Shown here: positions 22,892 through 64,000 of the stretch, piece by piece
Layout of the letters: every line of letters begins with the position of its first letter
Position numbering within the stretch: position 1 is the first letter of the stretch
From: a virus
Length of the DNA: 64,000 nucleotides
Reading direction: 5' to 3' (one strand)
Virus record (IMG/VR): IMGVR_UViG_3300033186_000039
Span: 1 to 64,000 of that record
Translations under genes and position numbers: made by a program
The notes under the pieces: model-generated
Seen by the model: the letters and a program-made list of their open reading frames with translations, nothing else
Databases searched by the model: none
Told to the model about the DNA's origin: nothing

Positions 22892-22894
22892 CTG

Positions 22895-24781: not shown

Positions 24782-24782
24782 C

Positions 24783-25109: not shown

Positions 25110-25328
25110 CCCGCAGGATGGGCTGACGATAGGAGACCCGTCAATCGCGCAACTATAAGCCCACCGTTGGTCAGACGATCCTACAAACTATTAAAATTTA
25201 ACGATATGAACAAACAATCCAAGCCGTTTTGCATTCATAATCATATGATATATTTAACCTTAACTCAAACATGGTTTGTGTCAATAAATTGTAATCGACA
25301 AAATGGCGGCTTCCAGCGATTATCAATT

Positions 25329-32107: not shown

Positions 32108-32208
32108 ACCACCTAGACCTCTGTTCAGGCATCGGCGGCTTTGCATTAGCTGCAAGCTGGCTTGAACTCAACACCGTGGCGTTTTGTGAAATTGACAAAT
32201 TTTGTCAG
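32105..32208 (+). repeat. Truncated duplicate of the first 104 nt of the methyltransferase gene (CTG instead of ATG)
   Basis: 101/104 identical to 32404-32507. All 3 differences are synonymous third positions in the MTase frame. Confidence 0.9.
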
Positions 32209-32284: not shown

Positions 32285-32402
32285 TATCCTACACTCCCAA
32301 GCAGGGGCTTGGGCGAGATGATTTTGTCAAAATAGCTTGATTCTGATGTGGCTTTATGGGAAGATGGAGGCGTGGACAATCTAAGGATTATTTATAATAA
32401 TA

Positions 32403-35152: not shown

Positions 35153-35274
35153 AGCAAATAAAATCCCATTCCCCCCATTTTTCCCGCCGAATTGTCAGCT
35201 TCTCTGCTAGTTTTGTCAACTGAAAGGAAAATATTGAGCAAGGACGCTCACTACCTCAAAAGGATTTTGACAAC

Positions 35275-43883: not shown

Positions 43884-43996
43884 TAGAATACCCCTAAAAA
43901 TCCACACCCCCATCTTCCCACAAAACGCCATTTGACACAAGCCATTTTGACAACTAAAACTACAACACGCCCACCGCAAATTGACAAAATAACATC

Positions 43997-46900
43997 ATGG
44001 CAGAATTCGACGCGAGACTAGAAGTGGAAATTGATGGCAAACAAGCCATTAAAGAATCGAAGCAACTTGACAAAGCCTTAGACTCCGCAGCGGACAGCGC
44101 GGACAAACTTTCCAAAGCCGCAGAACGCGCACAGCAGCGACTTGAACGCCAAGCTAAAGCACAGGAACGACTTGCGAAGCAGATGGTGGCGATGCAAAAA
44201 CAGATGGAACAAATGGGGCGCATTGCCAAAATGGTCGAAATGGCAAAAAACATGGAACGCATGGCGAATGCGTTTGGCAATAACACTGCCGCCAAAAGTA
44301 TCAAAGACCTCAACGCCAACCTCGCGCAAACCACCAAACACCTCAATGCCGTCACCAAAGCGGCTAAACAAGCGGATACCGCGCTGACAAAAAGCCTCAG
44401 CAAAACGGCGGGCGGCAATTTACCCAGCGTCAACGTCAAGCAAAGCGTCAGCATTGACACGGGCAACCTAAAGAAAACCAGTGGTGAAGTCAAGCAGTTG
44501 GGCGACAACTTGACCGTCACTACCGCCGCATTAAAAGAATTCCGTGGCGAATTTAAAGCAACCGAACAAGAACTCAACGCCGTCGGTGAAGCACAAGCGA
44601 AATACCGTCAAGAAACCAAGGAAACAGAAGAAGAAAGTAAATCCGCCGCCGCATCAATGGCGGCAATGGGCGTTGCAGCAGTCCAAAACCGCCAACACAT
44701 CGCTGCGCTTGCGGTATCCATGCACGGCTTAGCTTCCACTACCCGCCTCCTCGCGGGCGCAAGCGTATTGACGGGCATCTTTGGCAACCTCAACACCATT
44801 CTTGCCGCCTTATTTGTCACCCTTGACCGTATCGCCGACTTATTTAACTGGGTGACACGCGGTTTGCAAGCGATGGGTGCAAAGGCAATTGAATTTGCTA
44901 GAAACATTGATTTCTCACAAATCAGCGTTGCCAACTTCGTTGCCATGCTCAAAACGGCGGGGGCAGGCATTGCCGCCTTCATTCAAAGCCTTTCGTTTGA
45001 CAAAATCAAAGGCTTTTTACTCTGGCTCATGACCTCCGCCGCCGCTGGCATCCGCACCGCCTTCACCGCCACATTAGGCTTCCTTAAAGACTTTCATAAC
45101 GACATCAAAGACACGTCGTTAAGCGATGCGTTCAAAAAACGCCTCAACCCCGCACTTGAAACCACCCGTGCCAACGTCGGCAAACTCAGCAACGAACTCC
45201 GCAGCAACGGCAAAGCCGCATTTAACAATGCAGGCAACGGCGTCCGCAAGTTTAAGCAGGACGTAGACAAAGCCAGCCATTCCACCAGCGTCGGAGAAGT
45301 TTCCCTAAAAAAATGGATAGCGCAAATCGCGCTTATTGGTGGCGCAGTCGCCGCCGCGCTTGTTGGCATCCGTGCGCTGGTATCTGAGTTTGGCAATATT
45401 GTTGAGACGGGCAAAGAGTTTACCGAGGCGATAGCAGGCGTTGCTGCAACCAAAAACATCAACCTCAACACTAAAGACGGACAAGCACAGCTACAAGCTT
45501 TAAGCGACAAAGCGCGGGAACTCGGTCAGGACACCGTTTATTCAGCCAAGAAAAGTGCCGACGCGATGAACTTTTTGGCACTGGCGGGCTTTGAAACCAA
45601 TCAAATATTAGAAGGCACACCAGCGGTATTAGACCTCGCCGCCTCGACTACCACCGACTTAGCCCGCTCTTCTGACATCGCTTCAGACTTGATGACCGCG
45701 TTTGGCAAGTCAGTAGAAGAATTGCCCGAAGTGGTAGACACGCTTGCTAAAGTCACCTCGACCGCCAACACCAACCTAGAACAGTTTTTTGAATCCGCCA
45801 AATACTCTGCACCGGTTGCCACTGGGCTTGGCATTTCCATGCACGAAGTCGCGGGGGCGATTGGCATATTAGCCGATAGCGGCGTAAAAGCCTCGCAATC
45901 GGGCACAAGCGTTAGACAAAGTTTATTACGCCTCGCCGCACCGCCAAAAATGGCAAAAGACGCGCTGGAAGAACTCGCTGGCGCAATGTCTGACACCGAG
46001 TTTGACCAATTCAAACAAGGTGCAGCCCAAGCCCAAGGCACATTAAAAAGCTTAGGCATTGAGATTGAGGACAGCGCGACGGGCAATATGCGCCCTTACG
46101 CCGACATTCTGAACGATATTCGTGTCCGCATGAACGACATGGGCATGAGTACCGTCAAGCAAGCGGAGATATTAAAGAAAATCTTTGGGGTCAACGCCGC
46201 GTCCGCCATGCAAATCCTAGTGCAGTCCACGGGACGCGCTGAGAAGTCACTGCAATCCTACACCGAATCGTTGCGCGATAACGACGGCGTGGCGAAACAA
46301 ATGGCAAAAACCCGCTTAGACAACTTGGCGGGTGACATCAAGCTTATGGATTCAGCCGCTTACGAATTGCGTTTAACCATCTTTGACATGCTTGAACCCG
46401 CGCTGCGGCAGATGACCCAAACCAGCACCGCGTCAATCATTGCTTTAACCGACACCATCAAAACACTGCAACGCATTTTTGCGCCACTGTTACCGATTCT
46501 AAGTGCGCTGATTACGCCATTTGTACAGTTGTTCACCATATTAAACAATTTAAAAAATGCGGTGTTGACCATTGCGGGTTTAATCGCCGAGTACCTGATT
46601 CTCGGTTTGATAGACGGTCTATCGCCGCTGCTCAACACCCTACATGCGGTTCATGGTGCGTTATTGACTGCATTTGAACCACTCAGCACGGCATTGCAGC
46701 CCGTTTTTGAAGTCATTTTCCGCATTTATGCTGCACTGACCAACCTAAATAAAACTGCTAACGGCACCAATTCTAATTTCATCCAGATTGCAGGTACGGC
46801 GCATTTTCTAGGGCGCATCATTGGCAGTGGTTTGTATTTGACTATCGATGGCTTGGCGAAGCTTTTGATTGTGTTGATTGACCTGTTGGGCGCAGGGATT

Positions 46901-49900: not shown

Positions 49901-52900
49901 TTGGCTGCTGCTTTTGCAGCAATTAATTTCGGCGCACCTGTCGCAGCGGCTTTTGCTTTTGGTGCTGCAATCAGCAGCGGATTATTTTACCTGCTGGAGT
50001 TTCAACAAGCGGTAGAACAGACGTGGACAGAGCTAAGCCAAGCACAAAAAAAATTAGTTAAAACATTTGGCATTGAAATCGTTGCGCTAAGTCTGGGCAT
50101 TTTAATTAGTCCCATCATACCGCTAATTATTGGTTTAACTCGTGTCACTTACGCATTTCGAGACGAAATATCAACTTTGACAAGCTATATCAAAGACTTG
50201 TGGGAAAACAGCTTGATTTTCCGAGGCGTAGTTTTAGGTTTGGCAACTGCGCTAGGTGCATTAGCCTTAAGTTTGGTCGGCACCGCCACCGCAATCGCAA
50301 TTTCATCTTCGGCTGTGATGACGTTATTTGGCATGGGTCTAGGAGCAATTGCCAGCTATCATGACGAAGTAATGTGGGTATTTGACAGCATCACACTTGG
50401 CGTTACTCACTTCGTCGCCGCCATAACCGCCCCATTTAGCGGCTTGATTGCGTGGTTTGATTACCTGTTCGGCACAGATATGTACGCTAACGCGCTGGAT
50501 TTCTTCAGCGGCTTAGAAGACATCATTTTGATGGCGTTGGGTGCAAGTCTGATTGCACTAACGGCGTGGGTTGCCAAATGGATATGGGCAATGAAGCGCG
50601 TAGTGACCGCCAAAGCGCAAGCGAACAAACTAATCAGCCAAAACCCAGTCCTCATGGCATTCGGCATCGACCAAAAACAAGTGGAGAAAAACATCCGCCA
50701 AGGCGCAACCCAAGCCAACCATATCTTAGAAAATGCGTTTGCAGGCAAGAACTGCAAGTCATTAGGCAACTGCATTGAAAGCGGCACGAAATACGGGGTG
50801 AAAAGCGCTACTAAGCAGTCTCGGGGCTTTTTGAGCAAGCTGTTCAAGCCGTCGTCTATCTCCGAGCAAATCAGTCGTGGTGTGACGGATGGCGTGAAAA
50901 AAGGCGTGAAAGAATCGCAAAGTTTGTCAAAAGGTTTTCTGCGTGGCGGGATTAATTTTGACAGCAAGAACGCCGAAGGCAAGATGGTTTCGCTGCTGAA
51001 TGACATCAATAAGTTAAACAACCAAATCAACGCCTTGAGCGGGGAGTCGCGGAAGTACGGCAAGACCGTGGCGTTGGGCACATTGGAAGAAGATAGCGTT
51101 AAAGGGCGGCGGCTCACTAATCGTACTAAGCTGTTGGACGATGTTTATGATGACGACGTGGCGAATCGGTTACTGAAAACCACGATGGAGCAAAACAAGC
51201 TCAACGAAAAAGACCGTAAAGCGTTGGCGGATATTCACGACAAAATCCAAACCAAAGGAAAAATCAGCCGTGCTGACCAAATGGAAGTGCATCGCCGCAT
51301 CTACCAGTACCATCAATACGCGGCTGACAACGACCTTGCCAAAGCCAAAGAAGTCGCTGCGATTCAGAAACGCGGCTACATTGAAGTTGACAAAGCAGGC
51401 GCAGTGCGTGTTCAACAAATCAAAACCGAACAACGCATCCTACGCGCTCAACTCAAAGCCGCCAAAAGCGAATACGACAACATCCGCAACGCGATGGACT
51501 TGGAAGGACAACGCTACCTCAACCGTTTGATTAAACAGGGCGCACATCGCGGTTTGTCAGAACAAGAGGTGTTGGCGAAAAACGCCGACAAGATTCAGAA
51601 GAAGTTTGCCAAGATTTATACGCAAGCAGCACGCCCACCGCGCTTGAGTTTTAGCGGCATGTTTGAGAGTTGGTTTAAGTTTTGGGACAAAGCCTTGCCT
51701 TGGATTGGTAAAAAGCTGAAGAAATTTAGCGGCTGGTCTTTGCTAAGTAAATCGTTCAAGCGTGTATTTGGTGGCATGTTTAATTGGTTTGGTAAGCACA
51801 ACCCGTTTGCGTGGATGAGCAAAACTTTCAGTGAGCAGCTAGGCAAAATGAAAGCCGCATGGAAAGACGCGGGCATTCGTGAAGCATTGACCAAGCATGA
51901 GATGCGCAAAATGTCTCCCAAAAAGCCAGCATTTTTGCAAGAAAGCTTTTCAAGAGATACAGTCAATATAAATCATCCAGAGCAGCTAACCAGCTTAAAA
52001 AGCACGTTAAAAGATGATAAAAAAATCATTGCGGAAAGAAAAGCCAGTGCAATACAGCTACAAAGAAAGATTGCCGAGATAGCGCAGCAAGAAGCGCAAC
52101 AAAGAGCGCAAAACGCAAAAGCGGCTGAGTCAGTAATTCAGCAAAACGCTAAGCAGCATCAAGCCGTAATGATGCAAGCCAGACAACAACAAGACATCGC
52201 CAGACAGCAAATAGCGTTAGCCAAAGAAGCCGACAAAGCGCGGACAATGGCGATTAGCGACTACCAACAACACCAAGCAAAATTTAATCAGCAATCCATA
52301 GAGGCTGAAACAAACCACAAGGCGGCGTTGAGCAAGTTAGATAGCGACTACCTGATAGGCTATCGCAAGAAAACGATGGAGTTGGCGTTAGCTAATAAAA
52401 ACCTTACTCAAGATGCCAAGGTTGAAATTGCACAGCAATTAAAAGCGCACACCAACGCTTATTACACTGAGCTTGGCAATCTTGAGCAAGCCAGCGCAGC
52501 ACGATACCAACGTGAATCAGCTTTATTTATTAAGCACTTGGACACCGCCACTGAAGCACGGGCTTCTGCGCTTGCCAACCAGAAAAATATTCAGATTTGG
52601 GAACTGGACGAAGCGGGCAACAAGCGACAAACTGATGCTTACCGTAAGCTACGCCAACAAACCGAACAGCAACTTATCAATGATTTCCATTTGAGCCAAA
52701 AGGCGTGGAAACCAATGGAGCAGGAAACGCTCAAGCAGCGTTATCTTGGCAAGATGCAAACCACGGCGGTGCTGAACAATCGCTTTGCGGCTGAAGAATT
52801 GCAAATGCTGGATTTACAGCATCAAAACCGCATTGATACGCAGCGCAATCAGTATCAACAAGAACTCAAGTTGATGCACCAGCATATTGCTGACAAAGAG

Positions 52901-55900
52901 AAGTTGTTGAAAAAATCGATTGGCGATGATGCAGATCAAATTATCCAAACCACACGCGGCAGTACGCCCAGCGCGATTGCGCCACAGAAAAATGCCATTG
53001 TCGCTCAACAGCAAGTCATCAAAGAGATTAACCTACAACGCAAAAATCTGGAACAGATTAACGACAATCTCAAGTTTGATATTCAGCACATCACTCGCGG
53101 GGCGGGACAAGAATCCGCTGTACGGGGCATTTTAGGACGGGATGCGGATGAAGACGAAATACGCAAGCTGCTCACGCCACGCGGCTTAGAAAAGCAAGCC
53201 GAACAGCGCGTATTGTCACAAGGCAAGCTAACTAAGGACTCACCGAAGTTCTACAAAGCCGTGGCTGCCATGACGCAAGATTTGGAAGCGGCGTTAGGTG
53301 AAAACGCGAAAAGCGTCTATGCCATGAATAAGCAAATTGCAGAAAACAACCATGCGCAAAAGCAGCTGGGTGAAAGTGTTGCTATTTACAAACGTCAACT
53401 CAAAGAAGACATCGCCAACTTGCGCAAGTTATCGCCTGAGTCGTTTGCAAAAGGCGGGGCAATAAGATTTTCCGAGACAGATGATAATGTGTTGACAACC
53501 CGCAGCCAGTTGGAGGCGCAAGCACAGAAATACACGCCCGCTGACATCGGCGGTATGCGTCAAACTGTAGCAGGGATGCCAGATGCCGATTATTTGGCTG
53601 AACAGAGTGCGCAGTTGCGGCATGAGGCTGAGGTAGCGCAACGGGCGCAACAAGACCTGCTCAAAAACCAAGCCAGTTACAACAGCAAAGCACAAGCGAT
53701 TGATTTAGACCATCGTAGCCATTTAGCCGACCTCAACGATGAATACTTAGCCAATCTCAGAAAGACTACAGCAACGCACATTGCGAATGACACCAGCAGC
53801 AGCCAAGCATCTCGCAAACAAAGCTTGAAGCATTTATCTGAATACCATAAACAGTACGAAGAGGAGATGCAGAAAGCTGAAGAGCGCATGACGCACCGCA
53901 CTCGGCGGGAAGCGGCGTTATTGCTTGAAACGCTGGATACACAAACGCAAACCCGTGCTATTGACATCGCAGGGCAGCGCGGCGTTAATATGTATGAGCT
54001 TGATGATCAAGGCATTCAGCGAGAAACCAAAGCATTCATCAAGATTCAAAAGGAAGCTGAACAACACATCCTAAACGACTTCCAGTTGCGTGATGCGGCA
54101 TATCGTGAAGCGGAACGTCAAGCGGTTGCCGACCGTTACGATGCCAGAATTACCAATTTAGCAGCGCGGCATGACAGCTACACACAAGCACAAGTTCAGC
54201 TTTTCAAGCAAAATCATGCTGACATCATGCGGACGCAAGAGGCGTTGCACCAAGACGAATTACGCGCAATCAACGCTCACTATCAAGCCAAGCAAGATAA
54301 GTTGACTTCTCAACTCAGCGATACGCAACGTGGTCAAATAGTGATTCCTGAGTTGAAAGAGGTTGATCACGTCAAGCATCAAAAACGCTTGGTTGCTGGG
54401 TATGAGGAAGTTGTCAGAGAGCTACAATTGCAGCGTAACCACTTGGGTAGACTCAATAAGGATATTGGCAACCAAAAACTGCACATTCCTTCTGTGCAAT
54501 ACACCGACCCCGCGATTCAAAGATGGCTCGGCGACAGTGCCAGTAAAGAACAAATCAATGCATTCCTGTCTCCAGAAGGCGTAGAAAAGCAAGCGCGTAA
54601 AATGACACCCGGCACAGCAGACAGTGACAAATTTAACAAATCGCTTGCCACAACAATGAAAGAGATAAAGGATTCTCTTAGCCCTAACGCCAAGCTGATT
54701 TACGAACTCAATGCGCAAAAACTGGGCAACCAACGCCAACAAAAAGAACTTGACGAGGCGATAAGCAAGTACAAGAAAGAAATCAGCGACAATACCAAGG
54801 CACTGAAAAAGTTATCGCCTGATTCTTTCCATCGCGGCAAACTGGATTTAAGCCAAGTTGATCCAACGACAAATTACAGACGTGCTGACTTGGAGAGCGT
54901 CGCTAAACTACATGAGCGCGATAAGAGCTATCCAAGCTTTAAAGCTGACGACATGGATACCGAACTCACCCAGCCCCGCACTTCTCAACAAATGCTCGCA
55001 AGCCTTGAGTCTGCGATTCATAGCTTGCGCAATTCGTTTGCATTCTTGGAAACTAGCGCACAAAAAGCGGCAGTGGAATTAAGTCATGTCGGTAAAGATT
55101 TCAAAACGCCTTATTGGGTTAGTGCTGACAAGCAAATTACGGCTCGTCAAAAGAAAATAACGGAGATATACACAGAGATTGGCGAGGACTTAAAAGGTGC
55201 TAACAGAAAATCAACTAAAGAACTCCAAACGCTCTCCGCAAAAATAGGCAGCAGCTTAACTCAAAGCCAAACGTTTTTCGCTGACATGGCGAAAGCAGGC
55301 AACGACATAACAGACGCGCAACGCAAGCAGCTTAAAGCCGCAAATGATACGCTGAAATATCAGAAAAGCATTATTGACTCGGTGAAACGAAGCAAAGAAG
55401 CACAAGCTGAGATTAACAAACAAACGGCGATGCGGGCACAAGGTGAAAAAGGCACATACGGCAAGCTCAACGACGCAACAAAAAACATCACCGCACAAAT
55501 TGACGCAAACCAAAAGCTGATTAACCAAATCCATCAAGGCAATGTTGGACTCAACAATGCACAACGCAAAGAATTAATACTCAAGCAAGAATACCTTAAA
55601 GAAATAAGAAGCCAGACCCAAAAGCTGAGTAGCGACATACAGAATCAACAGCCTGCGGCAAAGGCTAAACAAAGAATACCCGTCCCAAAAGGACAGAGAG
55701 GTTTTGTAGACACCTCACTACCGCCCATAAAAGACTGGCCGGTTTACAAAGGCTACGAAAAACTCAAAGGCAAAATACAGGCAGTTGGCGAACAAGCTAA
55801 GGCTACCACTAGACATATTGCCACGATGGGTAAGCAGCTAACTGTAAGCCAAAAAGCAGTCAAAGGCATGGCGATTGCTGTCAAGGGGTTGGTATTATCC

Positions 55901-58900
55901 ATGAGCTTTGTCGGTGGCATGGCATTGGGTTTCGCCGCAGAAATGGCATTGATGTTTGCCTTCCAGTGGGTGATGGAGAATTGGGACGATATTGTTCTTA
56001 AATGGGAAAACATCTGGTACACGCTACAAAAAACGTTCAGCACCACTAAAAACAACATTATCTCGACATGGGAACAAGTCAAAACCTACCTTAACGCCAA
56101 TCTTGGTTTTGATGGCTTCAGTTATGGCGCAGCCCTAATCAAGACATTTGTACAGGGCATTCTGTCAAAAGGCGGAGAAATTTGGGGTGCTATCGTTGCG
56201 TTGTTTACACAGTACATTACCCCGCTGATGCCACACAGTCCTGCTGAACAAGGCCCCCTGTCAAATTTATTGATTTGGGGCGAGATGCTAATTGTGACAT
56301 TAGCGGAAGGCATCCGTAGCGCAAGCCATGTTTTAGTTGAAAGTTTGTTTTGGGTATTTAGTTATTTATTGACATTGGTGCCACAGCAAGCCCAAGCGGT
56401 CGCGGGTGGGTTTTTATTGGCATTTGGTCAACGCCTAACCGAAAACGATGTTAAGTTGTTTGACGGCGTGGCGGACGGTCTATACGCGGTGCTGGCAATT
56501 GAAATGCAGCGCGTATTCGGCATGAACAATCCCGTGGTCAATATGGTGAAAAATTTCATGTTGACCATAGGGGGATTGCTCAATTCGTTACCTGAACCCG
56601 TGCGCAATATGAGCAAAGCGTTAATCGTAGAACTATCTGCGATTACCTTCCTGCCTAAAATATTAGAAATATCAACCGCTACCATCATCAAGTTCAGCAA
56701 TGCGCTGCGTACCATATACGAATTAGTTCCCAGTTTGAGCAAGCCTTTCGCGTTACTTGGCAGCAAATTGACTGACCTGAGCGCTGCATTTAAAAACATC
56801 CAAAATGAGCTTAACTTCACGCAATGGGTATCACGTCAAGTTGTCACACCGCTGACCCATGCTTACCGCGTTGTACAGTCTTTTGCTCAAGGCGTCAGCG
56901 AATTTGCTCAATCGTTTTCTGATAGCTGGAAAAATACTGCTGAGCCAATCCGTAAGCTGGTCAAAGGCTTGTCAACTGACATGGGTGTTTTGCTGATTGC
57001 AACTATGGCATTTGGGGCTGTACCCGCAATGTATATTGCCTTAGCCGTCGCCGTAGGCAAAGCGGCTTATGCATTCAAAGACGAATTGTACGGCGCAATC
57101 ATGGCAGTTGTCGATTGGTGGGATTCGCTATCTGATACCAACAAGATGTTGATTACGATAACGGTAAGCATTGCCTCAGTTGGATTGGCATTAAAAGCCT
57201 TAATCCCGATTATTGCGTTAGCATTTAAGCTCACACCGCTACAACTATGGGCAGCGCGATTAAGTGTCTTATTCACGCTAATTTCTACGTTCTCGACAGA
57301 AATCAAAGCCGCAGCACAATGGTTGACGGACTTCTTCACCAATCCACTACAACCCGCCCAATCCATGACGGATTTACTGGCACGGTTTGGTGTGGGTATC
57401 ACCGCCGTCGTGGTAGCGTACAAACTACTCAGCACTACCATATTCATGGGCAATGCGGCTATCAGCACAGCAATTGGCATGTACAAATTGTGGCTGGTTC
57501 AAACCCAAGCCCAAACCGCTGCCACAGGCGCGCTCGCCACCGCCACCAAACTATTAAAAGTTTCTTTAGGGCTGTTACTGGTCGCTTTCGCCGCCTTTGA
57601 ACTCGGCAAACTCATTGCTGAAATGGAATGGTGGCAACAACAAAGCGATTTAGTTAAAGCCAGTATTATCGGCTTAACTGCCGTCCTCACTGCCAGTTAT
57701 GTCACATGGCGATTGATGCCAACGATTATGACCGCTTGGAGAGTTGCTACCACTGCGTTAAGTGCAGCCAAATCAGTATTGGCGACACGCCTGATTGCAG
57801 CAACACTGCTGGTTAGTAGCTACAGCGCATCCACCAAACTCGCTGTTATCGCCACAAACACAATGGCGGTCGCATCACGCGCTGCGGGTGTAGCGTTAGC
57901 CGTATTAGCCAGCCCGATTACATTAACCGTTGCCGCCGTTGCAGGCGCAACGGCTGCTTTAGTCTTGCTCTACCAACACCTAGACGACGTGCGAGAGTTC
58001 ATCAACTCGCAATGGGCGGGATTGGGTACGTTATTGACTGCCCCGATTGAAGCCATTGGTGATATGGTGATCAACACAGGCACAGCAATCGGCGAAGCCA
58101 TTGGCGCAATCTCCACAGGACAATTCAGCGACTTAGGCGGCATTTGGGCAAATTCCCTGATAGGCGGGTTCAACATCTTCGGCGAATTGCTCTACAACCT
58201 CATCACAGGCGCATTCACCATGTTGACAGGCATTGAGATGCCAGCATGGGAAAACTTTAATCCATTTACGGGCTTGTGGGAAACCGCCAACCAACAAGTC
58301 ATTAAAATCCGCGTTAGCTTTGGTCAATTTGTCCAGTGGGCGTTAAGAGAGATGGCATCGCTCATGGTCTATTCCTCAAGAGTTGCGTTTTTCCTTGGTA
58401 AAGGCGACGACATGATTGAGGGCGCACAGGTGCTGCGCAATGCGGCGAATGCGATTGGGCGGGATAATAGAAAGCTTTTGGAGGAAAATGCCAAAGGCAT
58501 TCCTGATGCAATCGCTAGTGGAATTAGCCAAAACGCACACAAAGTCGCTGACGAAACTGAGAAGATGATGAATGCGGCGGATAAAAAACTGCCTCACTCG
58601 CTCCCCGTCGAAGGCGACATGGCGAGTGCTGATGGTGGTGGTATTCCCGCAGCGATTGGCGAACAGATTGCGGTGAATGGACACAAGATCTCGGACGCGC
58701 TGGAAGGCGTGATGAACAATGCTGCAATGCAACTCAGCGGCGAACAAGTCAAGGCGGTAGCGAAAGCAGGCGCAAGCCAAATCAGCGACGCGGTGGGTAT
58801 GCTGGGCAACTTGGATTTTAAAGCCGCGCTTGACCAAACCAAGCAGGCGTTAGAGCAGGCAAGTATTCATTTAATGCTGGGCAAAATTGCCGCTGGTGCT

Positions 58901-61900
58901 GAATTAACCAAAGACTCGCTGGACACATTAAGTCTTGACCAACTGAAAAAACTGCAAGAAGAAGCCGCGAATCTGTCCAAAGAACAAGCCAAAGAAGGTG
59001 CAAATGCAATCAGCATGGCGGCATCGCAAAACGTGGTGATGTTGAATGAATTTGTCAAACAAAAAGAACAACTCGCAGCGGAGGCAAAACAAGGCTCAAC
59101 TGACTTAATGACGCAAATGACCACTGATGTCAAAGACATGTCTACTCAGGCGCAAAAGTTCTTCCGTAAAATTAAAGGTGAAATCGAGGAAATAAGAGAG
59201 AAAACCAAAAACGTTGGCTTAAATGAGGATAAAATCCGTTTGCGAGACCTTGAAGAATCCATGAAAAATGGTTCTAAGGCGTGGGTTTCCTGGTTTGATA
59301 CCAAAGGCATCCCAGAAGAACAAGCGCAAGTCGAACTTAAAAAAATGAAGTTAATGGTAGCGCAAAAAGCGATTGAAGCTGAAAATTTACGGCTTAAAGA
59401 AGAGCAGAACAAGCTAGTCACAGAGGAAGAAAAGAAACGCGAATACATCAACTCGCTACTGAAAGACGGCACTGAAGAGCAGCGAAAACAAGTTGCAGAA
59501 ATGAAAGCGCGTGAAGCGCAAATTAAGGAAGTGCAAAAGCAACGCGAAGCCGAAAAGAAAGCGGCGCAAGAAATCACTCAAGCCCAAGAGGGCCTCACTA
59601 AGGCTTTGGCAGATTCGCAACTTGCGTTGCAAACAGCACAAATGACGGAATTGGAAAAAGAACGTCTACAACTTAAACAGCAATACGTCAAATTGAACGA
59701 TGCTGAATCTAAGCAAATGCTGGCGCAACTTATTGCCAACAAAGAGCAAGCCAAAATCCAAAAAGCATTGTTCGACGCCAAGCAAGCCACGCTGTTCGCT
59801 GGCATGACCGATGCGCAAAAAGAGTTTTATCAACTCACCAAGGAGATTGGCAAGGAAAACGCCGCGATTGTTGCGCAAGAACGAGTTAAAGCCGACATCA
59901 TCAAAAAAACCCGTGACCTGCAAACCAAAATTGACACTATGGGCATGTCTGATGCGCAGAAGCAGCGTTATGAGTTTGAGCAACAATATGGCGAAGCATT
60001 GGGCGCAAACGTGAAGCAGTTTGCAGAGCAATACGAAAAAACTTTGCAAATGATTGCCTCACAAAAAGAATTGGCGAAGGTGCGAGAGCAGCTTTATGCC
60101 GCAGGGATGAATGCCAAGCAGCGCGAATACTTTGAACTGATGAAACAAGTCGGGGTTGAAACCGCCGACCAAATCATCCGTGAGAAAGAACTCGCCGCAC
60201 AACGCCAAGCAGGTCAAGAAAAAATTGACAAGCTGCAACATGAAATTGACTTAAAAACCAAGCTGACTGCACAGGAGCGGGAACGTTACGAGTTAATTAA
60301 AGATGTTGCGCCAGAACAATGGGATCAAGTCGTTGCACTAGATACACAAAAGAAAGCTTTAGAAGAAAACAATAAGCAGTGGGATAGCGCGATTGATAAG
60401 GCGGGGGATTACTGGGGCAAGATGGCGTCAGGTCAAATGGATTTTGACGACGGATTCAAGGGTATGGTGAAAGACCTTCAGCAGTCGTTCCAGCAACAAC
60501 TCGCAGACCAAGCCAAAGCTGAATTTAAAGCGTTATTCGGCATCGGAGATAACGGTGCGCAACTGGATAACGAAGAAATCATGAATAAAATGTCTTCATC
60601 ACTGGATGAAAACATTAAAACCGCCGCCAAAGCGTATGATGATTACACTCAAAGAGTTGAAAACGCCACCAATGACGCTGGCGACAAGATGGCGCAGGCA
60701 ATTGATAAACTGCAATCGGGACTAAAGGATGCTTTAAGCACGCTCAATACGGGTGTTGCTGCGGCAGTGACTGAGGGCGTCGAGAAAGCACGCAAAGTAA
60801 CTAATTCAGATGTTAATTTTGCGCCAGTGGAACGCGGCAAGGCAGACTACAACCAAAATGAAATCATCAACATTGTCGGCAGCACTGCGCAACAACACGG
60901 CATTGACCCTGTTGACTTTATTAAGTTTGCCAAAGTTGAAAGCAATTTTAACGAGAGAGCGCAAGCCAGTTTAAGTTCTGCAAAAGGACTGTTCCAGTTT
61001 GTTGACAGCACTGCCAAGCAGTACGGCATCATGGGTAAACAGTTTGACCCATTTGAAAATGCTAACGCGGCTGCTGAGCTATACAAAGACAACTTAAAAA
61101 CCATCAAAAAATTACAAGGTGAAGTCAAGGACATGGACGTAGTGGACATGTACTTGATGCACCAGCAGGGCGTGGGTGGCTACAACAAACTAAGCAAAGT
61201 TGCTGATGGCGCAGGCAATTTTAATGCGTCGCAACGCAAAAACCTCATCAATAATGCCCACGGCGATTTGCGCAGCCAGATGCCACAAATGGACGACACC
61301 ACGCTCGCTAACGCATTTATTGATTACTGGAAACAGCGTTTTGATGCAATTCAACTACCTGAGATTGACGGCAAGCCGCTAGAAGTTGCGGTTCAACAGC
61401 AATCTGCTGCTACGCAGGCTAGCGTGCAGTCTACGCAAATGCAATCGCAAGCGGCGCAGATGAGTGCCAGTGCACAGGCACAAACAGCGCAGGCAGCACA
61501 AATGAATGCGACGGCACAAAGCCAGTCCGCTGTCGCCATTTCACAAGCCGCCCAATTCATGATAACAACAGGTGGTGCAATTGCCAGCAAAGTCTCTTCC
61601 GCTATGGGCGGTATCGCTGGTGCGGCACAACGCATGACCAGTGGCAAAGGCGGCATTGTTGGCGCAATTAATGGCTTATTTGGAGGTAGCTCTGGTGGTG
61701 ACGCCGCTGCAAAAGCGGCACAGGCTAGCAGCACGGGTTTTTTCAGCAGTATTGGCGATTTCTTTAGCGGCATAAAAAGCAATGTCAGCAGTTTCTTTTC
61801 TCCGATTACGGATGCGGTAAAAGGCTTTTCTAGCACTGTAAAAAGTGGCATCAACAGCATAACCGAAAGTATTGGACTTGGGGAAGTTTTTGGCAGCAGT

Positions 61901-64000
61901 GGGCTAAGTGGCATGAGTGGTGGTCTACTAAGTGTTGGTATGTCACTTTTCAGCGGTGATATAACGGATGCAATCAGTGGCTTAGGCGGCATGATTGGAC
62001 AGGCATTGATTCCTATACCTGTGTTGGGCGGCATGATTGGTAGCACGGTAGGCAAGTTTATCGGCGGCGCATTCAGCAAAAAACAACTGTCTGGCTATCG
62101 CATTGAAAGTACGCTTGGCGGACGATACGGCACTAATTACGGGCGTGAATCTAACCGTAATAACGAGGACGGTATCAAAGCATCCAAAGAAATGACCCGT
62201 AATGGCAACAAAGGCTATTATGGCAATACGGAAGAAGCGATTGCGCCAATTGAAGCAGCATTGCGCGACTGGAACGAGGCAATGAAAGTTAAAATCGGTG
62301 AACTTGGTGTTTTCGTGGGAGAAAGTGCCACCGCATTTACCGAAACGGTTTACGACGGCTTTGAGCAAAAACTAGACATCAAAGGCAAGTCCGTAGAAGA
62401 AATTGCACAAAAAGCCGAGCAGTGGATGCAAGAAACTCAAGGTTTATTGCTGTCACGCGCTGCTAGCGTTATGGACTCATCAAAACTCAACGTCGTTGAC
62501 AAACTCATTGTTGACGCATTGAAGGCCAGTGAAGGTGATTTTGAGTCCGTGCAGCCTATTATTGAAAACCTTAATGCGCTCAGTGTCGCTTTTCATAAAT
62601 TAGGCTTTTCCAGTGACAGCATCAGCCAGGCATTAATCGACAATGCAGGCGGTTTAGATAATTTACTCAGCAACTTAGACCTTTACTACAACAGTTTCTA
62701 TTCACAAGAAGCCAAAGTTTTAGCGCAGATGCGCGTCATCCGCGAGACAATGCTGGATACTTTCAAAGGCATTTCCAAAGGCCTTGACCAAGGTTCGTTA
62801 GAACTACCAGAAACCGCCGCTGAATTCCGTAAGACTATTGACGCGGTGATGAAAGGCGAAACAGAACTCAGTGAAGTGCAAAAAGGTGCGCTACTGAATT
62901 TAATTCCTGTTGCCAAAGAATACTATCAACTGACAGAAAGTGCCGAAGACGAATACACCAAGAATATCTTAGGCGAGTCTGCTTATCGCCAACGCGAAGT
63001 TGAAAAAGCCACCAAACAAATCAACACCATATTTTCTGAAATCGGGCAGCCGATTCCGCAAACCAAGGCTGAATTTGAATCATTGGTGCGCGAAATAGAA
63101 CGCACTCAAGGCGTCAACAGTAGCGCCGCCACTGCATTAAAATCGGTTAGCGGCGTATGGCTTGATTACATCAATATAACTGGTGGTTTAAGCAGTGATT
63201 TATTCACGGTTGAGCAGGGTTTAAATACATTCCACAACCAAATCATGAGCTTGGGCGACGCGTTGACTGCCAGCAATATTGCCAACGCCTTTACTGTTGC
63301 ATTTGAGAATTCCGCCAATCGCTCCGAGTTCGGGAAAAACTTCGCCCAAAACGTCGAGCAGCAAGTCCGACAAGCGATGCAAAACGTGATGCTAAACACG
63401 GTATCGCAGATGGTCATGCAGGGGATAGTACAACCGATGCTGCAAGCGCAGCAATTGGTCATGGCGCAAGAATTGGAAGCAGCAGGCGTGAAATCCAGCA
63501 TGGAATTGGATGCAGCCGTAAATGCGGCGAATATTGACATGCAGGCTTCCACTAACGCAGCGAATATGACGCTCAATGCGAAAACCCAAGCGTCAAGTAT
63601 GGCGGTTAATAGCGAAGTGCAGTCCAGCACAGTTGAGATGCAAGGCGCACTGACCGCCGCACAAATATTGGCAGCAGGCGGAGAAGAAGCAGCGGCATTT
63701 ATTGAAAATCAAATTGATAACATATTAGCGACGGTAGAAGTAATGACGCAAGTCATGGGCGATGAGCGCATTGAAGAGGCGATGTCAAAAATGATGCCCG
63801 GACTGGAAAAAGTTGGCGCAGCAACGTATGACATGATGAAAACCACGCCTATCACTGCGCCAATTGTGCAGCAAAACGAACAACGCATTCAAATTGACCG
63901 CGCTAAAGAGGCGGCTGACCGCGCTAAAGAAGCGGAGGAAAAAGCTGAACAAGCGAGAAAAGAAGCTGAACAAAGAAAAATTGACGACGCCAAAAATACC
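43997..64000 (+). CDS. Giant tape-measure-like protein, 5' complete and 3' truncated by the window end (>6,668 codons)
   Basis: ATG 43997 is preceded by an in-frame TGA at 43982-43984. No stop occurs in this frame to 64000, confirmed by spot translation at 14 places and by the absence of any closed + ORF in the track. It contains a TMP core, PHS.A.QG..NL motifs, an SLT domain and Gly-rich segments. All listed ORFs from 43960 to 63973 are shadow ORFs. Confidence 0.85.
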   Translation, partial: MAEFDARLEVEIDGKQAIKESKQLDKALDSAADSADKLSKAAERAQQRLERQAKAQERLAKQMVAMQKQMEQMGRIAKMVEMAKNMERMANAFGNNTAAKSIKDLNANLAQTTKHLNAVTKAAKQADTALTKSLSKTAGGNLPSVNVKQSVSIDTGNLKKTSGEVKQLGDNLTVTTAALKEFRGEFKATEQELNAVGEAQAKYRQETKETEEESKSAAASMAAMGVAAVQNRQHIAALAVSMHGLASTTRLLAGASVLTGIFGNLNTILAALFVTLDRIADLFNWVTRGLQAMGAKAIEFARNIDFSQISVANFVAMLKTAGAGIAAFIQSLSFDKIKGFLLWLMTSAAAGIRTAFTATLGFLKDFHNDIKDTSLSDAFKKRLNPALETTRANVGKLSNELRSNGKAAFNNAGNGVRKFKQDVDKASHSTSVGEVSLKKWIAQIALIGGAVAAALVGIRALVSEFGNIVETGKEFTEAIAGVAATKNINLNTKDGQAQLQALSDKARELGQDTVYSAKKSADAMNFLALAGFETNQILEGTPAVLDLAASTTTDLARSSDIASDLMTAFGKSVEELPEVVDTLAKVTSTANTNLEQFFESAKYSAPVATGLGISMHEVAGAIGILADSGVKASQSGTSVRQSLLRLAAPPKMAKDALEELAGAMSDTEFDQFKQGAAQAQGTLKSLGIEIEDSATGNMRPYADILNDIRVRMNDMGMSTVKQAEILKKIFGVNAASAMQILVQSTGRAEKSLQSYTESLRDNDGVAKQMAKTRLDNLAGDIKLMDSAAYELRLTIFDMLEPALRQMTQTSTASIIALTDTIKTLQRIFAPLLPILSALITPFVQLFTILNNLKNAVLTIAGLIAEYLILGLIDGLSPLLNTLHAVHGALLTAFEPLSTALQPVFEVIFRIYAALTNLNKTANGTNSNFIQIAGTAHFLGRIIGSGLYLTIDGLAKLLIVLIDLLGAGIRAFEQLGIAVGEGMGYLHTEVKPVWNFLTGFVQGLLSYSKLLDKAIASIAGGLVYILSPLVKASPALQTFEATLGSITVSLSSGGKTIQGAFSPLEDLIHPLLGLFAGLSNAIQGLGQNLNAWESAGYSAGQMLIGVLIYPLTAITRLVPAAVESIKLAVASLVLLGKTIGIVAGALHMFAQQGLGGLQPLHDSMAQMAQAFYSLFKDINFYAIIEFHRQAVVKQLAKLIEQDIYGTLSAAFASLPTQLSGDVKYAIGGVAWSIADSLVQALDQVTDIVFISGIHLLLAFSDGIESGAQALFDRIDGVFEWVYSLLFPHSDAKQGAFANLTASGYALVVAFSDGINDAAQWLYNTISKVFSFSANLFLTDDQLHGALTPLVKLGEVAHKQLEKLSTTLRQGLQSAFNPSNLNLEQGLSYLALYIGVELVNTVVVGLTQFVNAFDNLSANVIGMIAHFFIDITNAITQQQSLFTTLSNLTANLTQTLSQFTNELVFNFELVFIGLLVGVSQNVIAAIGKFLQQVTKSLLKHKAIKELVKTFAQFGSLIGKAAQGLFFGLGKSAIILARTLEDEFPIVSIWTRYLTGTLSQIQWQTQWFFAQQFATFKGLWVGNLELIRQFIKAYAVIDFAKIILSVLLPVEAGKKGIRYNINKLRISFTYNLKNFYDSINNFAKRQPVIWNIFLKQVDDFALRIAKVMPALGRELVKQTPYVVASIRGLLDVFTFAFPRNARLLTFLIENTIIQPLEHFAKSLNIQLIRIAQGSMWAQFWKSLDVAFKAIPTIFSVILKQIPTLTNLFSHLTGRFFQFVTALNQFDVLLRNTFKISLPLFFLLSESVIKLIWHFDEISSHWDEFVGLFEEGTANLATAWGFFMEQLSTPEGLQNVMRLASAFMMLSPVTALLGTIVFILSFFPERITPIIHWLQAMGDTYSEQINRIKQTTYEFITFLPQALNTLMSMDSEQIFTGIGNQIKRLKDDYPAFAALFDGTVYIIKILTSAVIGLAAAFAAINFGAPVAAAFAFGAAISSGLFYLLEFQQAVEQTWTELSQAQKKLVKTFGIEIVALSLGILISPIIPLIIGLTRVTYAFRDEISTLTSYIKDLWENSLIFRGVVLGLATALGALALSLVGTATAIAISSSAVMTLFGMGLGAIASYHDEVMWVFDSITLGVTHFVAAITAPFSGLIAWFDYLFGTDMYANALDFFSGLEDIILMALGASLIALTAWVAKWIWAMKRVVTAKAQANKLISQNPVLMAFGIDQKQVEKNIRQGATQANHILENAFAGKNCKSLGNCIESGTKYGVKSATKQSRGFLSKLFKPSSISEQISRGVTDGVKKGVKESQSLSKGFLRGGINFDSKNAEGKMVSLLNDINKLNNQINALSGESRKYGKTVALGTLEEDSVKGRRLTNRTKLLDDVYDDDVANRLLKTTMEQNKLNEKDRKALADIHDKIQTKGKISRADQMEVHRRIYQYHQYAADNDLAKAKEVAAIQKRGYIEVDKAGAVRVQQIKTEQRILRAQLKAAKSEYDNIRNAMDLEGQRYLNRLIKQGAHRGLSEQEVLAKNADKIQKKFAKIYTQAARPPRLSFSGMFESWFKFWDKALPWIGKKLKKFSGWSLLSKSFKRVFGGMFNWFGKHNPFAWMSKTFSEQLGKMKAAWKDAGIREALTKHEMRKMSPKKPAFLQESFSRDTVNINHPEQLTSLKSTLKDDKKIIAERKASAIQLQRKIAEIAQQEAQQRAQNAKAAESVIQQNAKQHQAVMMQARQQQDIARQQIALAKEADKARTMAISDYQQHQAKFNQQSIEAETNHKAALSKLDSDYLIGYRKKTMELALANKNLTQDAKVEIAQQLKAHTNAYYTELGNLEQASAARYQRESALFIKHLDTATEARASALANQKNIQIWELDEAGNKRQTDAYRKLRQQTEQQLINDFHLSQKAWKPMEQETLKQRYLGKMQTTAVLNNRFAAEELQMLDLQHQNRIDTQRNQYQQELKLMHQHIADKEKLLKKSIGDDADQIIQTTRGSTPSAIAPQKNAIVAQQQVIKEINLQRKNLEQINDNLKFDIQHITRGAGQESAVRGILGRDADEDEIRKLLTPRGLEKQAEQRVLSQGKLTKDSPKFYKAVAAMTQDLEAALGENAKSVYAMNKQIAENNHAQKQLGESVAIYKRQLKEDIANLRKLSPESFAKGGAIRFSETDDNVLTTRSQLEAQAQKYTPADIGGMRQTVAGMPDADYLAEQSAQLRHEAEVAQRAQQDLLKNQASYNSKAQAIDLDHRSHLADLNDEYLANLRKTTATHIANDTSSSQASRKQSLKHLSEYHKQYEEEMQKAEERMTHRTRREAALLLETLDTQTQTRAIDIAGQRGVNMYELDDQGIQRETKAFIKIQKEAEQHILNDFQLRDAAYREAERQAVADRYDARITNLAARHDSYTQAQVQLFKQNHADIMRTQEALHQDELRAINAHYQAKQDKLTSQLSDTQRGQIVIPELKEVDHVKHQKRLVAGYEEVVRELQLQRNHLGRLNKDIGNQKLHIPSVQYTDPAIQRWLGDSASKEQINAFLSPEGVEKQARKMTPGTADSDKFNKSLATTMKEIKDSLSPNAKLIYELNAQKLGNQRQQKELDEAISKYKKEISDNTKALKKLSPDSFHRGKLDLSQVDPTTNYRRADLESVAKLHERDKSYPSFKADDMDTELTQPRTSQQMLASLESAIHSLRNSFAFLETSAQKAAVELSHVGKDFKTPYWVSADKQITARQKKITEIYTEIGEDLKGANRKSTKELQTLSAKIGSSLTQSQTFFADMAKAGNDITDAQRKQLKAANDTLKYQKSIIDSVKRSKEAQAEINKQTAMRAQGEKGTYGKLNDATKNITAQIDANQKLINQIHQGNVGLNNAQRKELILKQEYLKEIRSQTQKLSSDIQNQQPAAKAKQRIPVPKGQRGFVDTSLPPIKDWPVYKGYEKLKGKIQAVGEQAKATTRHIATMGKQLTVSQKAVKGMAIAVKGLVLSMSFVGGMALGFAAEMALMFAFQWVMENWDDIVLKWENIWYTLQKTFSTTKNNIISTWEQVKTYLNANLGFDGFSYGAALIKTFVQGILSKGGEIWGAIVALFTQYITPLMPHSPAEQGPLSNLLIWGEMLIVTLAEGIRSASHVLVESLFWVFSYLLTLVPQQAQAVAGGFLLAFGQRLTENDVKLFDGVADGLYAVLAIEMQRVFGMNNPVVNMVKNFMLTIGGLLNSLPEPVRNMSKALIVELSAITFLPKILEISTATIIKFSNALRTIYELVPSLSKPFALLGSKLTDLSAAFKNIQNELNFTQWVSRQVVTPLTHAYRVVQSFAQGVSEFAQSFSDSWKNTAEPIRKLVKGLSTDMGVLLIATMAFGAVPAMYIALAVAVGKAAYAFKDELYGAIMAVVDWWDSLSDTNKMLITITVSIASVGLALKALIPIIALAFKLTPLQLWAARLSVLFTLISTFSTEIKAAAQWLTDFFTNPLQPAQSMTDLLARFGVGITAVVVAYKLLSTTIFMGNAAISTAIGMYKLWLVQTQAQTAATGALATATKLLKVSLGLLLVAFAAFELGKLIAEMEWWQQQSDLVKASIIGLTAVLTASYVTWRLMPTIMTAWRVATTALSAAKSVLATRLIAATLLVSSYSASTKLAVIATNTMAVASRAAGVALAVLASPITLTVAAVAGATAALVLLYQHLDDVREFINSQWAGLGTLLTAPIEAIGDMVINTGTAIGEAIGAISTGQFSDLGGIWANSLIGGFNIFGELLYNLITGAFTMLTGIEMPAWENFNPFTGLWETANQQVIKIRVSFGQFVQWALREMASLMVYSSRVAFFLGKGDDMIEGAQVLRNAANAIGRDNRKLLEENAKGIPDAIASGISQNAHKVADETEKMMNAADKKLPHSLPVEGDMASADGGGIPAAIGEQIAVNGHKISDALEGVMNNAAMQLSGEQVKAVAKAGASQISDAVGMLGNLDFKAALDQTKQALEQASIHLMLGKIAAGAELTKDSLDTLSLDQLKKLQEEAANLSKEQAKEGANAISMAASQNVVMLNEFVKQKEQLAAEAKQGSTDLMTQMTTDVKDMSTQAQKFFRKIKGEIEEIREKTKNVGLNEDKIRLRDLEESMKNGSKAWVSWFDTKGIPEEQAQVELKKMKLMVAQKAIEAENLRLKEEQNKLVTEEEKKREYINSLLKDGTEEQRKQVAEMKAREAQIKEVQKQREAEKKAAQEITQAQEGLTKALADSQLALQTAQMTELEKERLQLKQQYVKLNDAESKQMLAQLIANKEQAKIQKALFDAKQATLFAGMTDAQKEFYQLTKEIGKENAAIVAQERVKADIIKKTRDLQTKIDTMGMSDAQKQRYEFEQQYGEALGANVKQFAEQYEKTLQMIASQKELAKVREQLYAAGMNAKQREYFELMKQVGVETADQIIREKELAAQRQAGQEKIDKLQHEIDLKTKLTAQERERYELIKDVAPEQWDQVVALDTQKKALEENNKQWDSAIDKAGDYWGKMASGQMDFDDGFKGMVKDLQQSFQQQLADQAKAEFKALFGIGDNGAQLDNEEIMNKMSSSLDENIKTAAKAYDDYTQRVENATNDAGDKMAQAIDKLQSGLKDALSTLNTGVAAAVTEGVEKARKVTNSDVNFAPVERGKADYNQNEIINIVGSTAQQHGIDPVDFIKFAKVESNFNERAQASLSSAKGLFQFVDSTAKQYGIMGKQFDPFENANAAAELYKDNLKTIKKLQGEVKDMDVVDMYLMHQQGVGGYNKLSKVADGAGNFNASQRKNLINNAHGDLRSQMPQMDDTTLANAFIDYWKQRFDAIQLPEIDGKPLEVAVQQQSAATQASVQSTQMQSQAAQMSASAQAQTAQAAQMNATAQSQSAVAISQAAQFMITTGGAIASKVSSAMGGIAGAAQRMTSGKGGIVGAINGLFGGSSGGDAAAKAAQASSTGFFSSIGDFFSGIKSNVSSFFSPITDAVKGFSSTVKSGINSITESIGLGEVFGSSGLSGMSGGLLSVGMSLFSGDITDAISGLGGMIGQALIPIPVLGGMIGSTVGKFIGGAFSKKQLSGYRIESTLGGRYGTNYGRESNRNNEDGIKASKEMTRNGNKGYYGNTEEAIAPIEAALRDWNEAMKVKIGELGVFVGESATAFTETVYDGFEQKLDIKGKSVEEIAQKAEQWMQETQGLLLSRAASVMDSSKLNVVDKLIVDALKASEGDFESVQPIIENLNALSVAFHKLGFSSDSISQALIDNAGGLDNLLSNLDLYYNSFYSQEAKVLAQMRVIRETMLDTFKGISKGLDQGSLELPETAAEFRKTIDAVMKGETELSEVQKGALLNLIPVAKEYYQLTESAEDEYTKNILGESAYRQREVEKATKQINTIFSEIGQPIPQTKAEFESLVREIERTQGVNSSAATALKSVSGVWLDYINITGGLSSDLFTVEQGLNTFHNQIMSLGDALTASNIANAFTVAFENSANRSEFGKNFAQNVEQQVRQAMQNVMLNTVSQMVMQGIVQPMLQAQQLVMAQELEAAGVKSSMELDAAVNAANIDMQASTNAANMTLNAKTQASSMAVNSEVQSSTVEMQGALTAAQILAAGGEEAAAFIENQIDNILATVEVMTQVMGDERIEEAMSKMMPGLEKVGAATYDMMKTTPITAPIVQQNEQRIQIDRAKEAADRAKEAEEKAEQARKEAEQRKIDDAKNT
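45500..45950 (+). other. Tape-measure core region (TP901/TIGR01760-like) within the giant ORF
   Basis: LSDKARELGQDTVYSAKKSADAMNFLALAGFETNQILEGTPAVLDLAAST..DIASDLMTAFG...VVDTLAKVTSTANTNLEQFFESAKYSAPVATGLGISMHEVAGAIGILADSGVKASQSGTSVRQSLLRL. Confidence 0.75.
60842..61200 (+). other. Lytic transglycosylase (SLT-like) domain within the giant ORF
   Basis: AKVESNFNERAQASLSSAKGLFQFVDSTAKQYG...AAAELYKDN...MYLMHQQG. The catalytic E-S is at 60938, and the GLFQF..T motif starts at 60986. Confidence 0.75.

Follow-up and report, generated by a model that had tools for sequence, protein, structure and literature searches.

A giant tape measure gene of the TP901 family in an uncultivated tailed phage and its possible bearing on tail length

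Giant tape measures in described phages and in the present record

Tape measure proteins (TMPs) are the textbook case of a protein ruler. In phage lambda, tail length scales with the length of the tape measure gpH at ~0.15 nm per residue, and TMPs of the TP901-1 and lambda gpH type typically comprise 700-1,500 amino acids (aa). The ruler relationship has been checked up to ~5,000 aa and tails of ~0.9 µm. Here, we describe a considerably longer candidate encoded in a 64,000-nt stretch of viral DNA (positions 1 to 64,000 of IMG/VR record IMGVR_UViG_3300033186_000039; the whole stretch is referred to as the window). The gene lies on the plus strand, opens with an ATG at 43997 and runs past the window end, with a total length of ~24.7 kb (8,234 codons) according to a gene call on an overlapping contig. 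We consider it likely that this single real frame is the tail-length TMP gene of an uncultivated tailed phage, with a product that would be expelled at infection. If the entire chain acted as a ruler, the checked range would be extended by about two thirds.

The longest known phage tail measures nearly 1 µm and is associated with the 5,002-aa TMP of the Thermus phages P23-45 (gp96) and P74-26, both of the Oshimavirus group (PMC10770324, PMC10034513). Membrane and muralytic domains are found in gp96 together with a metallopeptidase (PMC10770324, PMC10034513), and its N-terminal ~1,100 aa correspond to a fused virion RNA polymerase (residues 327-1124; PMC10770324). We confirmed the gp96 gene as 15,009 nt in the 84-kb genome NC_009803. 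Both gp96 and the present protein are giant tape measures encoded by a single open reading frame (ORF), yet the present protein is ~1.65 times longer and combines an SLT domain with a TP901 core, without the virion RNA polymerase and metallopeptidase of gp96. Head-tail and chaperone genes precede the gp96 gene but not the present gene. The hosts also differ, with Thermus for P23-45 and probably a mesophilic gammaproteobacterium here. The two proteins share no sequence similarity (best BLASTP E 0.42), and giant size thus evolved independently in each lineage. A comparison with the Thermus case could show which features are necessary for giant tails. An RNA polymerase cargo as in P23-45 was considered for the present protein and rejected based on the lack of similarity to gp96 and a sole D.D.D string (DADED at aa 3049) located in a charged region. 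Chains of 8H2M and 8H2N gave no PDB sequence match to the giant protein.

Other large TMPs are known from the Gordonia phages Katyusha, Benczkowski14 and Hotorobo, which have TMP genes of ~9 kb reported to be "among the largest", tails of ~500 nm and genomes of ~75 kb (PMC4919401, PMC4982279). Compared by description only, these phages likewise devote an unusually large share of the genome to the TMP gene, although their genes are ~2.7 times shorter than the present one and their hosts are actinobacterial. TMPs of the TP901-1 and lambda gpH type share a homologous core (TIGR01760, PF10145) and an N-terminal coiled coil with the present protein. Further common features are tandem repeats, an optional muralytic domain and, behind the core, hydrophobic segments that carry a motif of the HSPAxxGP type. 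The present protein differs from this type by being 5-10 times longer, by having two post-core blocks rather than one, by charged helical regions totalling ~2,500 aa that lack homologues, and in that no chaperone genes were found next to its gene. Ejection proteins of the T5 pb2 and T7 gp16 type likewise carry a muralytic domain and membrane-inserting segments and leave the virion before the DNA. The resemblance is functional only, with no homology outside the SLT domain. Full-text searches of the literature retrieved no report of a larger TMP, nor of this sample. A preliminary description of this DNA, made by reading the letters and a list of ORFs, had cited no tape measure of comparable size. 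The protein is indeed the record among described tape measures at 1.65 times the largest one, but with gp96 as a precedent it is not the first giant.

The giant reading frame and its tape measure core

The giant frame is a single real gene, continuous and coding throughout. No stop occurs over 6,668 codons from the ATG at 43997 to position 64000 (plus strand; codons 1-6,668 of 8,234), and an in-frame TGA lies upstream at 43982-43984. Base composition predicts ~359 stops in this frame, with a probability of ~1e-160 for the observed absence. The remaining five frames contain 170-436 stops each over the same 20-kb interval. Elsewhere in the window, no stop-free stretch exceeds 2,718 nt, which makes this frame 7 times longer than the next. 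Codon usage of the giant ORF tracks that of ten other window genes in all 13 slices of 1.5 kb (r 0.47-0.72, compared to at most 0.24 off-frame). The uninterrupted frame of >6,668 codons reported in the preliminary description is hence confirmed, and its absence from the ORF list is explained because ORFs running off the source sequence go unreported. The list shows only antisense ORFs of up to 228 aa over the gene, which are shadows of the real frame.

The full length of the gene comes from the Logan contig SRR14108926_8008 (43,087 bp; run SRR14108926), which also carries the neighbouring DnaN gene and is identical to window positions 32447-52672 (0 mismatches in 20,226 nt). The gene call on this contig uses the same ATG (contig position 11,551) and predicts a product of 8,234 residues. 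Its stop at contig position 36,255 corresponds to window coordinate 68,701 (inferred stop codon at 68,699-68,701), ~4.7 kb past the window. Because the contig continues for a further 6.8 kb beyond the stop, the gene is complete there. The stop left to be found by contig extension hence has a predicted position, with the final 1,566 codons known by length only from the gene call; the sequence read covers aa 1-6,668. The extrapolated protein mass is ~0.9 MDa. An exact 33-mer from the window end had no match in viral, genome and metagenome collections. Repeat concatenation had been raised as a potential assembly error. Exact repeats that touch the gene, on one strand or the other, reach at most 18 nt, and the best pairs of DNA repeats within it span only 33-40 nt at 65-74% identity. 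Therefore, repeat collapse or concatenation was rejected as the origin of the giant ORF. GC content at third codon positions (GC3) is 0.42-0.44 at 46997-49996, compared to 0.47-0.57 across the remainder of the gene and 0.54 for other genes. This segment, which falls within the first hydrophobic block described below, may have a different origin.

Profile matches place the giant protein in the TP901 tape measure family. The equivalog domain TIGR01760 ("tape_meas_TP901") matches aa 459-825 (45371..46471, plus strand) over model positions 2-331 of 349, with 186.6 bits against a cut-off of 28.8 (E 6.4e-55). PF10145 matches aa 503-731 (nt 45503-46189) over the full model (1-201), with 152-155 bits against a threshold of 33.2 (E 2.5e-44 and 3.4e-45). 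A total of 18-19 PHROG families match, co-linearly over aa ~380-1,320, with 13 of these annotated as tape measures (best E 3e-78), and the solved tape measure chain PDB 9g8s matches with E 8e-33. The core matches >1,100 phage records in tblastn searches as well as 329 database proteins, and the annotated ones are mostly called tape measures. The tape measure identity suggested earlier was therefore recovered above curated cut-offs in a profile scan, with PHROGs and 9g8s in agreement. Beyond scoring above the family thresholds of TIGR01760 and PF10145, the protein is encoded by a tailed phage (with large terminase, S49 protease, Mu gpT-type capsid and Mu-type portal genes in the window) and is long, by prediction mainly alpha-helical and poor in Cys and Pro, with both coiled-coil and hydrophobic stretches. 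The protein is probably the functional tape measure of its phage.

The order of features proposed from hand translation (i.e., a coiled-coil N-terminus, the TP901 core, two hydrophobic blocks, a Q/K-rich middle, an SLT domain at 60.88-61.11 kb and a Gly/Ser-rich stretch) was found again with all of its elements, each on the plus strand. The chain opens with a charged, coiled-coil-like segment (aa 1-230, 43997..44686) identified by composition and a weak SMC-like coiled-coil match, and continues with compositionally defined hydrophobic helices (aa 230-470) that lead into the core. The hydrophobic and strongly amphipathic helical block 1 (aa 800-2200, 46394..50596) is covered by tape measure PHROGs up to aa ~1320. 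A 51-aa stretch of this block is duplicated in tandem (aa 1237-1347), and the motif HSDAKQGAF occurs near aa 1287. A highly charged region rich in Q, K, E and R follows (aa 2201-3930, 50597..55786), which is predicted to be helical from composition and structure prediction. Self-comparison of the protein revealed an old internal duplication of ~450 aa in this region, with copies at aa 2734-3177 (52196..53527) and aa 3200-3637 (53594..54907) that share 27-33% identity at an offset of 461-465 aa (E down to 7e-42). The hydrophobic helical block 2 (aa 3950-4800, 55844..58396) was defined by PHROG matches and self-comparison, and carries PHSPAEQGPL near aa 4080. Tandem repeats of ~50 aa (M-T/S-D-A-Q-K..Y.L type; aa 5193-5470, 59573..60406) occupy part of a second charged region at aa 4800-5600. 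Downstream of the SLT domain, composition and a 14-aa periodicity define a low-complexity segment that is first Q/A/S-rich and then G/S-rich (aa 5790-6030, 61364..62086). The visible chain ends with orphan sequence predicted to be helical at low confidence (aa 6031-6668, 62087..64000), including 11-aa repeats at aa 6473-6568 (nt 63413-63700), and 1,566 aa more lie beyond the window.

Block 2 resembles block 1 at aa 4041-4123 (34% identity to aa 1248-1330) and at aa 4216-4399 (aligned to aa 1912-2093). The PHROGs phrog_58, 1272, 4197 and 28 match within aa 3541-5104. Positions 183-818 of phrog_58 match aa 3541-4153, and the same profile region also matches aa 390-1093. In addition, several TMPs of 870-2,545 aa match aa 3995-4779 in block 2. 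PHROG matches annotated as "endolysin" fall on this hydrophobic block as well (aa 4590-4756), outside the SLT domain. Based on these alignments, the two hydrophobic blocks are recognizable as diverged copies of each other and of the segments that follow the core in ordinary TMPs. The chain can thus be read as a TP901-type TMP of the usual kind in which the post-core part was apparently duplicated and the copies became separated by long helical inserts of charged sequence. Both the composition and the predicted secondary structure of the visible 6,668 aa are almost entirely helical. The chain has only 2 Cys and 1.9% Pro, and among 66 segments of 100 aa the hydrophobic periodicity is significant for the alpha type in 40 and for the beta type in 3. 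AlphaFold predictions without alignments for two ~1,000-aa pieces are nearly all helix, with helices of up to 135 residues. At pLDDT of 40 and 50, these low-confidence models were used for secondary structure only, as weak support.

The SLT lytic transglycosylase domain covers aa 5629-5705 (60881..61111, plus strand) within a wider region of homology at aa ~5547-5789. The PF01464 match scores 41.5 bits against a threshold of 21.3 (E 1e-10). The predicted catalytic Glu-Ser pair is present (E5648-S5649, nt 60938-60943) and is followed by GLFQF at aa 5664-5668. In tblastn searches of phage records, the domain was most similar to internal virion (ejection) proteins of podophages and to tail lysins of jumbo phages, and a further protein (P0001) matches the SLT region at 38% identity. 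Judged by Pfam, tblastn and P0001, on which the assignment rests, the SLT domain is real.

Outside of the core and the SLT domain, the giant protein is essentially an orphan in sequence searches. A tblastn search against all phage records matched only these two regions, and word-index searches with aa 3940-5600 and aa 5601-6668 matched one protein each. An exhaustive phmmer search of aa 2700-3899 against 1.84 billion representative proteins, a library evidently lacking the query's own protein, found no homologue. The best 120 relatives of the core have 568-1,766 aa. A metagenome scan retrieved only ordinary TMPs, including 24 complete relatives of 416-1,524 aa. Two short metagenomic fragments alone look like true relatives from their alignments, with P0002 being 45% identical to aa 451-1093 and P0003 38% identical to aa 37-642. 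The N-terminus of P0003 aligns with that of the giant protein (aa 37 corresponding to aa 30 of P0003), which supports the start codon at 43997. On its contig (L005; NCBI JAOQIB010109369.1), P0003 ends at 603 aa and homology resumes in another frame with 52% identity to aa 681-790. The frame change at 2255-2311 of this contig is an assembly error, or else the TMP is split or frameshifted in that relative. Upstream of P0003 lies a DNA methylase in divergent orientation. The best full-length relative outside of the core is P0122, a 2,545-aa TMP of a P2-like contractile-tail element on JAPOGZ010000019.1, a contig of a metagenome-assembled genome (MAG). P0122 matches aa 377-984 of the giant protein as well as block 2 at aa 4034-4140, 4333-4419 and 4663-4746. 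The protein has one third of the giant's length and lacks both the charged middle and the SLT domain. The P0122 gene sits within a canonical module of sheath, tube, chaperone, TMP and gpU/X/D genes, unlike the giant gene.

Tail length and alternative readings of the giant protein

A possible mode of action can be drawn from lambda gpH, the TP901-1 TMP, T5 pb2 and P23-45 gp96. A few copies of the TMP (three in known cases) would lie stretched out inside the tail tube as it grows, and tube polymerisation would halt where the TMP ends. At infection, the TMP would be expelled first, ahead of the DNA. The SLT domain of the ejected protein might then cut peptidoglycan, and the hydrophobic helices might enter the membrane and form or line a conduit for the DNA. 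The extreme length appears to have arisen as TMP segments were duplicated and long helical spacers of charged sequence were inserted. Scaled at 0.15 nm per residue, the window part would correspond to a tail of ~1.0 µm and the full chain to one of ~1.24 µm. By analogy with known rulers, we regard the chances of a tail of at least 1 µm as about even. We give slightly less than even chances to the stronger proposition that the whole 8,234-aa chain is a working ruler, which would set a tail of ~1.2 µm or more with length contributed largely by orphan charged spacer modules.

Several observations weigh against a ruler of this kind. Most of the visible protein has no homologue, hence the ruler role is an extrapolation, and both structure models are of low confidence. 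The last 1,566 aa as well as the genes downstream lie beyond the sequence read, and the sequence evidence may all derive from one sequencing run. The giant gene is ~24 kb from the head module and follows a divergently transcribed DnaN operon. No pair of tail assembly chaperone genes (G/GT) was found upstream, and searches with PHROGs, Pfam, NCBIfam and PDB sequences recognised no gene for a tail tube, sheath or baseplate anywhere in the window. A position after a G/GT frameshift chaperone pair and before distal-tail genes is the usual gene order for TMPs, yet it is not part of the family definition. The upstream side of the giant gene does not show this order, and the downstream side falls outside of the window. 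Finally, the P23-45 TMP demonstrates that cargo with no ruler function can make up large parts of a giant TMP.

The latter point leads to the alternative that only part of the chain, such as the core and a single hydrophobic block, measures the tail and the rest travels in the tail or capsid and is ejected into the host, with a tail that is long but well below 1 µm. In such an arrangement, which is possible if less probable in our view, the ejected material would comprise block 2, the charged middle of ~1,700 aa and everything from the SLT domain onward. Once delivered, it could form a channel across the envelope, act as a rod spanning the periplasm or serve some other function. A precedent is gp96 with its virion RNA polymerase part (PMC10770324). 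Two TMP-like units in one chain are suggestive of a fusion, the orphan middle region differs from the rest by its weak amphipathic periodicity, and the SLT domain is most similar to ejection proteins of podophages. However, searches of Pfam, PHROGs, NCBIfam and PDB sequences revealed no enzymatic or globular domain besides SLT, and DADED at aa 3049 is the only string approaching a DxDxD context of RNA polymerase type. The chain is also predicted to be helical throughout, and rulers are made of long helices. Moreover, the full 5,002 aa of the P23-45 protein still accompany a tail of nearly 1 µm. The preliminary description had left a choice between an extraordinarily long tail and accreted non-ruler cargo. 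No globular or enzymatic cargo beyond SLT was found, and the sequence alone does not decide between the two. TMP processing is known for lambda gpH (to H*) and T5 pb2, hence the product could also be a polyprotein cleaved into a TMP proper, membrane-insertion proteins and a lysin. The modular layout with low-complexity linkers at aa 5790-6030 and the S49 and Mu-type proteases encoded by the phage would fit such cleavage. We consider a polyprotein unlikely though, as no cleavage motif or self-cleaving domain was detected in the giant protein, the proteases are of the head-maturation type, and the sequence nowhere demands processing.

Two further explanations have very little to recommend them. 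A TMP-derived protein with a role outside of the virion, such as an effector or a surface or membrane protein, would be compatible with a gene outside of any recognisable tail module, and contractile injection systems include TMP-related effectors as a precedent (PMC13277306). We regard such a role as highly improbable, because the contig carries a full set of head and packaging genes with no other TMP candidate seen in the window, the N-terminal ~1,300 aa are co-linear with bona fide TMP families, and an upstream motif is common to the giant gene and the head-protease gene. The least credible explanation is an artefact, with either a chimera of tail genes from several phages or neighbouring genes fused by lost stops. 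The metagenomic origin of the sequence, possibly from one run, raises this concern, as do the GC3 dip at 47-50 kb and the frame switch within the TMP of the related fragment L005. Yet chimeras or lost stops are difficult to reconcile with 6,668 stop-free codons against ~359 expected stops, or with the uniform codon usage. No repeat exceeds 18 nt to mislead an assembler, and the internal duplications are old (27-34% identity) rather than assembly copies. The identical Logan contig breaks only at a true 104-nt repeat located elsewhere.

A functional ruler of this size would raise the questions of how a largely hydrophobic 0.9-MDa chain stays soluble with no recognisable chaperone gene adjoining, how a tube of ~300 rings is faithfully assembled, and which host envelope or lifestyle rewards such reach. 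If ejected cargo instead made up much of the chain, no larger protein would be known to be delivered by way of a phage tail, and the chain would be a source of new membrane-active or spacer modules. Apparently, about one third of a ~75-kb genome is spent on the giant TMP gene.

Gene surroundings, phage relatives and host

The giant gene is the first in a rightward unit that points away from the divergent DnaN operon, with minus-strand genes of 66, 144 and 57 aa and DnaN as upstream neighbours. The upstream region (43930..43989, plus strand) contains three copies of a TTGACA-type motif that is also found ahead of many other genes of the phage (43932-43940, 43945-43953 and 43981-43989). The last of the three copies ends 8 nt ahead of the ATG. 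Neither a Shine-Dalgarno sequence nor a sigma-70-like -35/-10 pair was found upstream of the gene, and we infer that the motifs are regulatory. An 11-nt near-palindrome, TTTTGWCAAAA, occurs 23 times across the window with at most 1 mismatch, compared to 5.6 expected occurrences and a maximum of 12 in 100 shuffles. Copies are found for example at 4314-4324, 16386-16396, 23075-23085, 23438-23448, 27484-27494, 32322-32332 and 35265-35275, and near the giant gene at 43932-43989. Most copies lie a few to ~50 nt ahead of start codons, and many of the genes concerned lack a Shine-Dalgarno sequence. The element is probably a promoter or operator of the phage.

The window is from a tailed phage with Mu-like head genes. 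Profile and database matches identify the large terminase (TerL; 11412-13007, plus), and further genes encode an S49 protease (16401-17288, plus), a Mu-type protease/scaffold (17297-18016, plus), a Mu gpT-type major capsid protein (18455-19363, plus) and a Mu-type portal (25329-26792, minus). The structural module at 11412-26792 is scrambled: the minus-strand portal gene runs opposite to the TerL, protease and capsid genes on the plus strand, and scattered among them are small genes of the minus strand along with an HNH endonuclease (24783-25109) and dUTPase/dCTP-deaminase genes. The window also encodes a ribonucleotide reductase, a thymidylate synthase, a dUTPase/dCTP deaminase, a C5 methyltransferase and a DnaN clamp. 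No tRNA gene was found in the window. Among 50,697 phage records, no megablast match or near-identical DNA was found for the window, and TerL and the capsid protein are at most 35% and 39% identical, respectively, to any record. In IMG/VR, no relative of block 2 or TerL was found. The identical capsid protein also occurs on another contig (50-200 kb) that might represent either the source assembly or a phage closely related to this one. Four MAGs encode DnaN clamps with 46-48% identity to that of the phage; two of these MAGs are labelled Gammaproteobacteria, and the others Pseudomonadales and Gemmatimonadales. These matches give a weak hint at the host, which is probably a gammaproteobacterium.

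A second Logan contig (_5865) covers window positions 50-32154 and together with _8008 spans ~75.5 kb. If this is near the genome size, the giant gene would make up about one third of the genome. The two contigs break apart at a direct repeat of 104 nt (32105-32208 and 32404-32507), with copies that are 97% identical and spaced by 299 nt. The second copy forms the 5' end of the C5 DNA methyltransferase gene. At the end of contig _5865, window positions 1-1195 are AT-rich and have no called genes (GC 0.38 over window 1-2000). This segment could be a genome end or an origin region. A 741-aa ORF at 35275-37500 (plus) has no Pfam, PHROG or NCBIfam match. Its N-terminal part is rich in Thr, Ser, Gly and Asn and apparently beta-rich, and aa ~497-720 in the C-terminal part match plant-type leucine-rich-repeat (LRR) ectodomains in PDB (GSO1 E 8e-30, FLS2 E 4e-27). 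To our knowledge, LRR proteins are uncommon in phages. The similarity suggests that the ORF could encode a receptor-binding or host-interaction protein.

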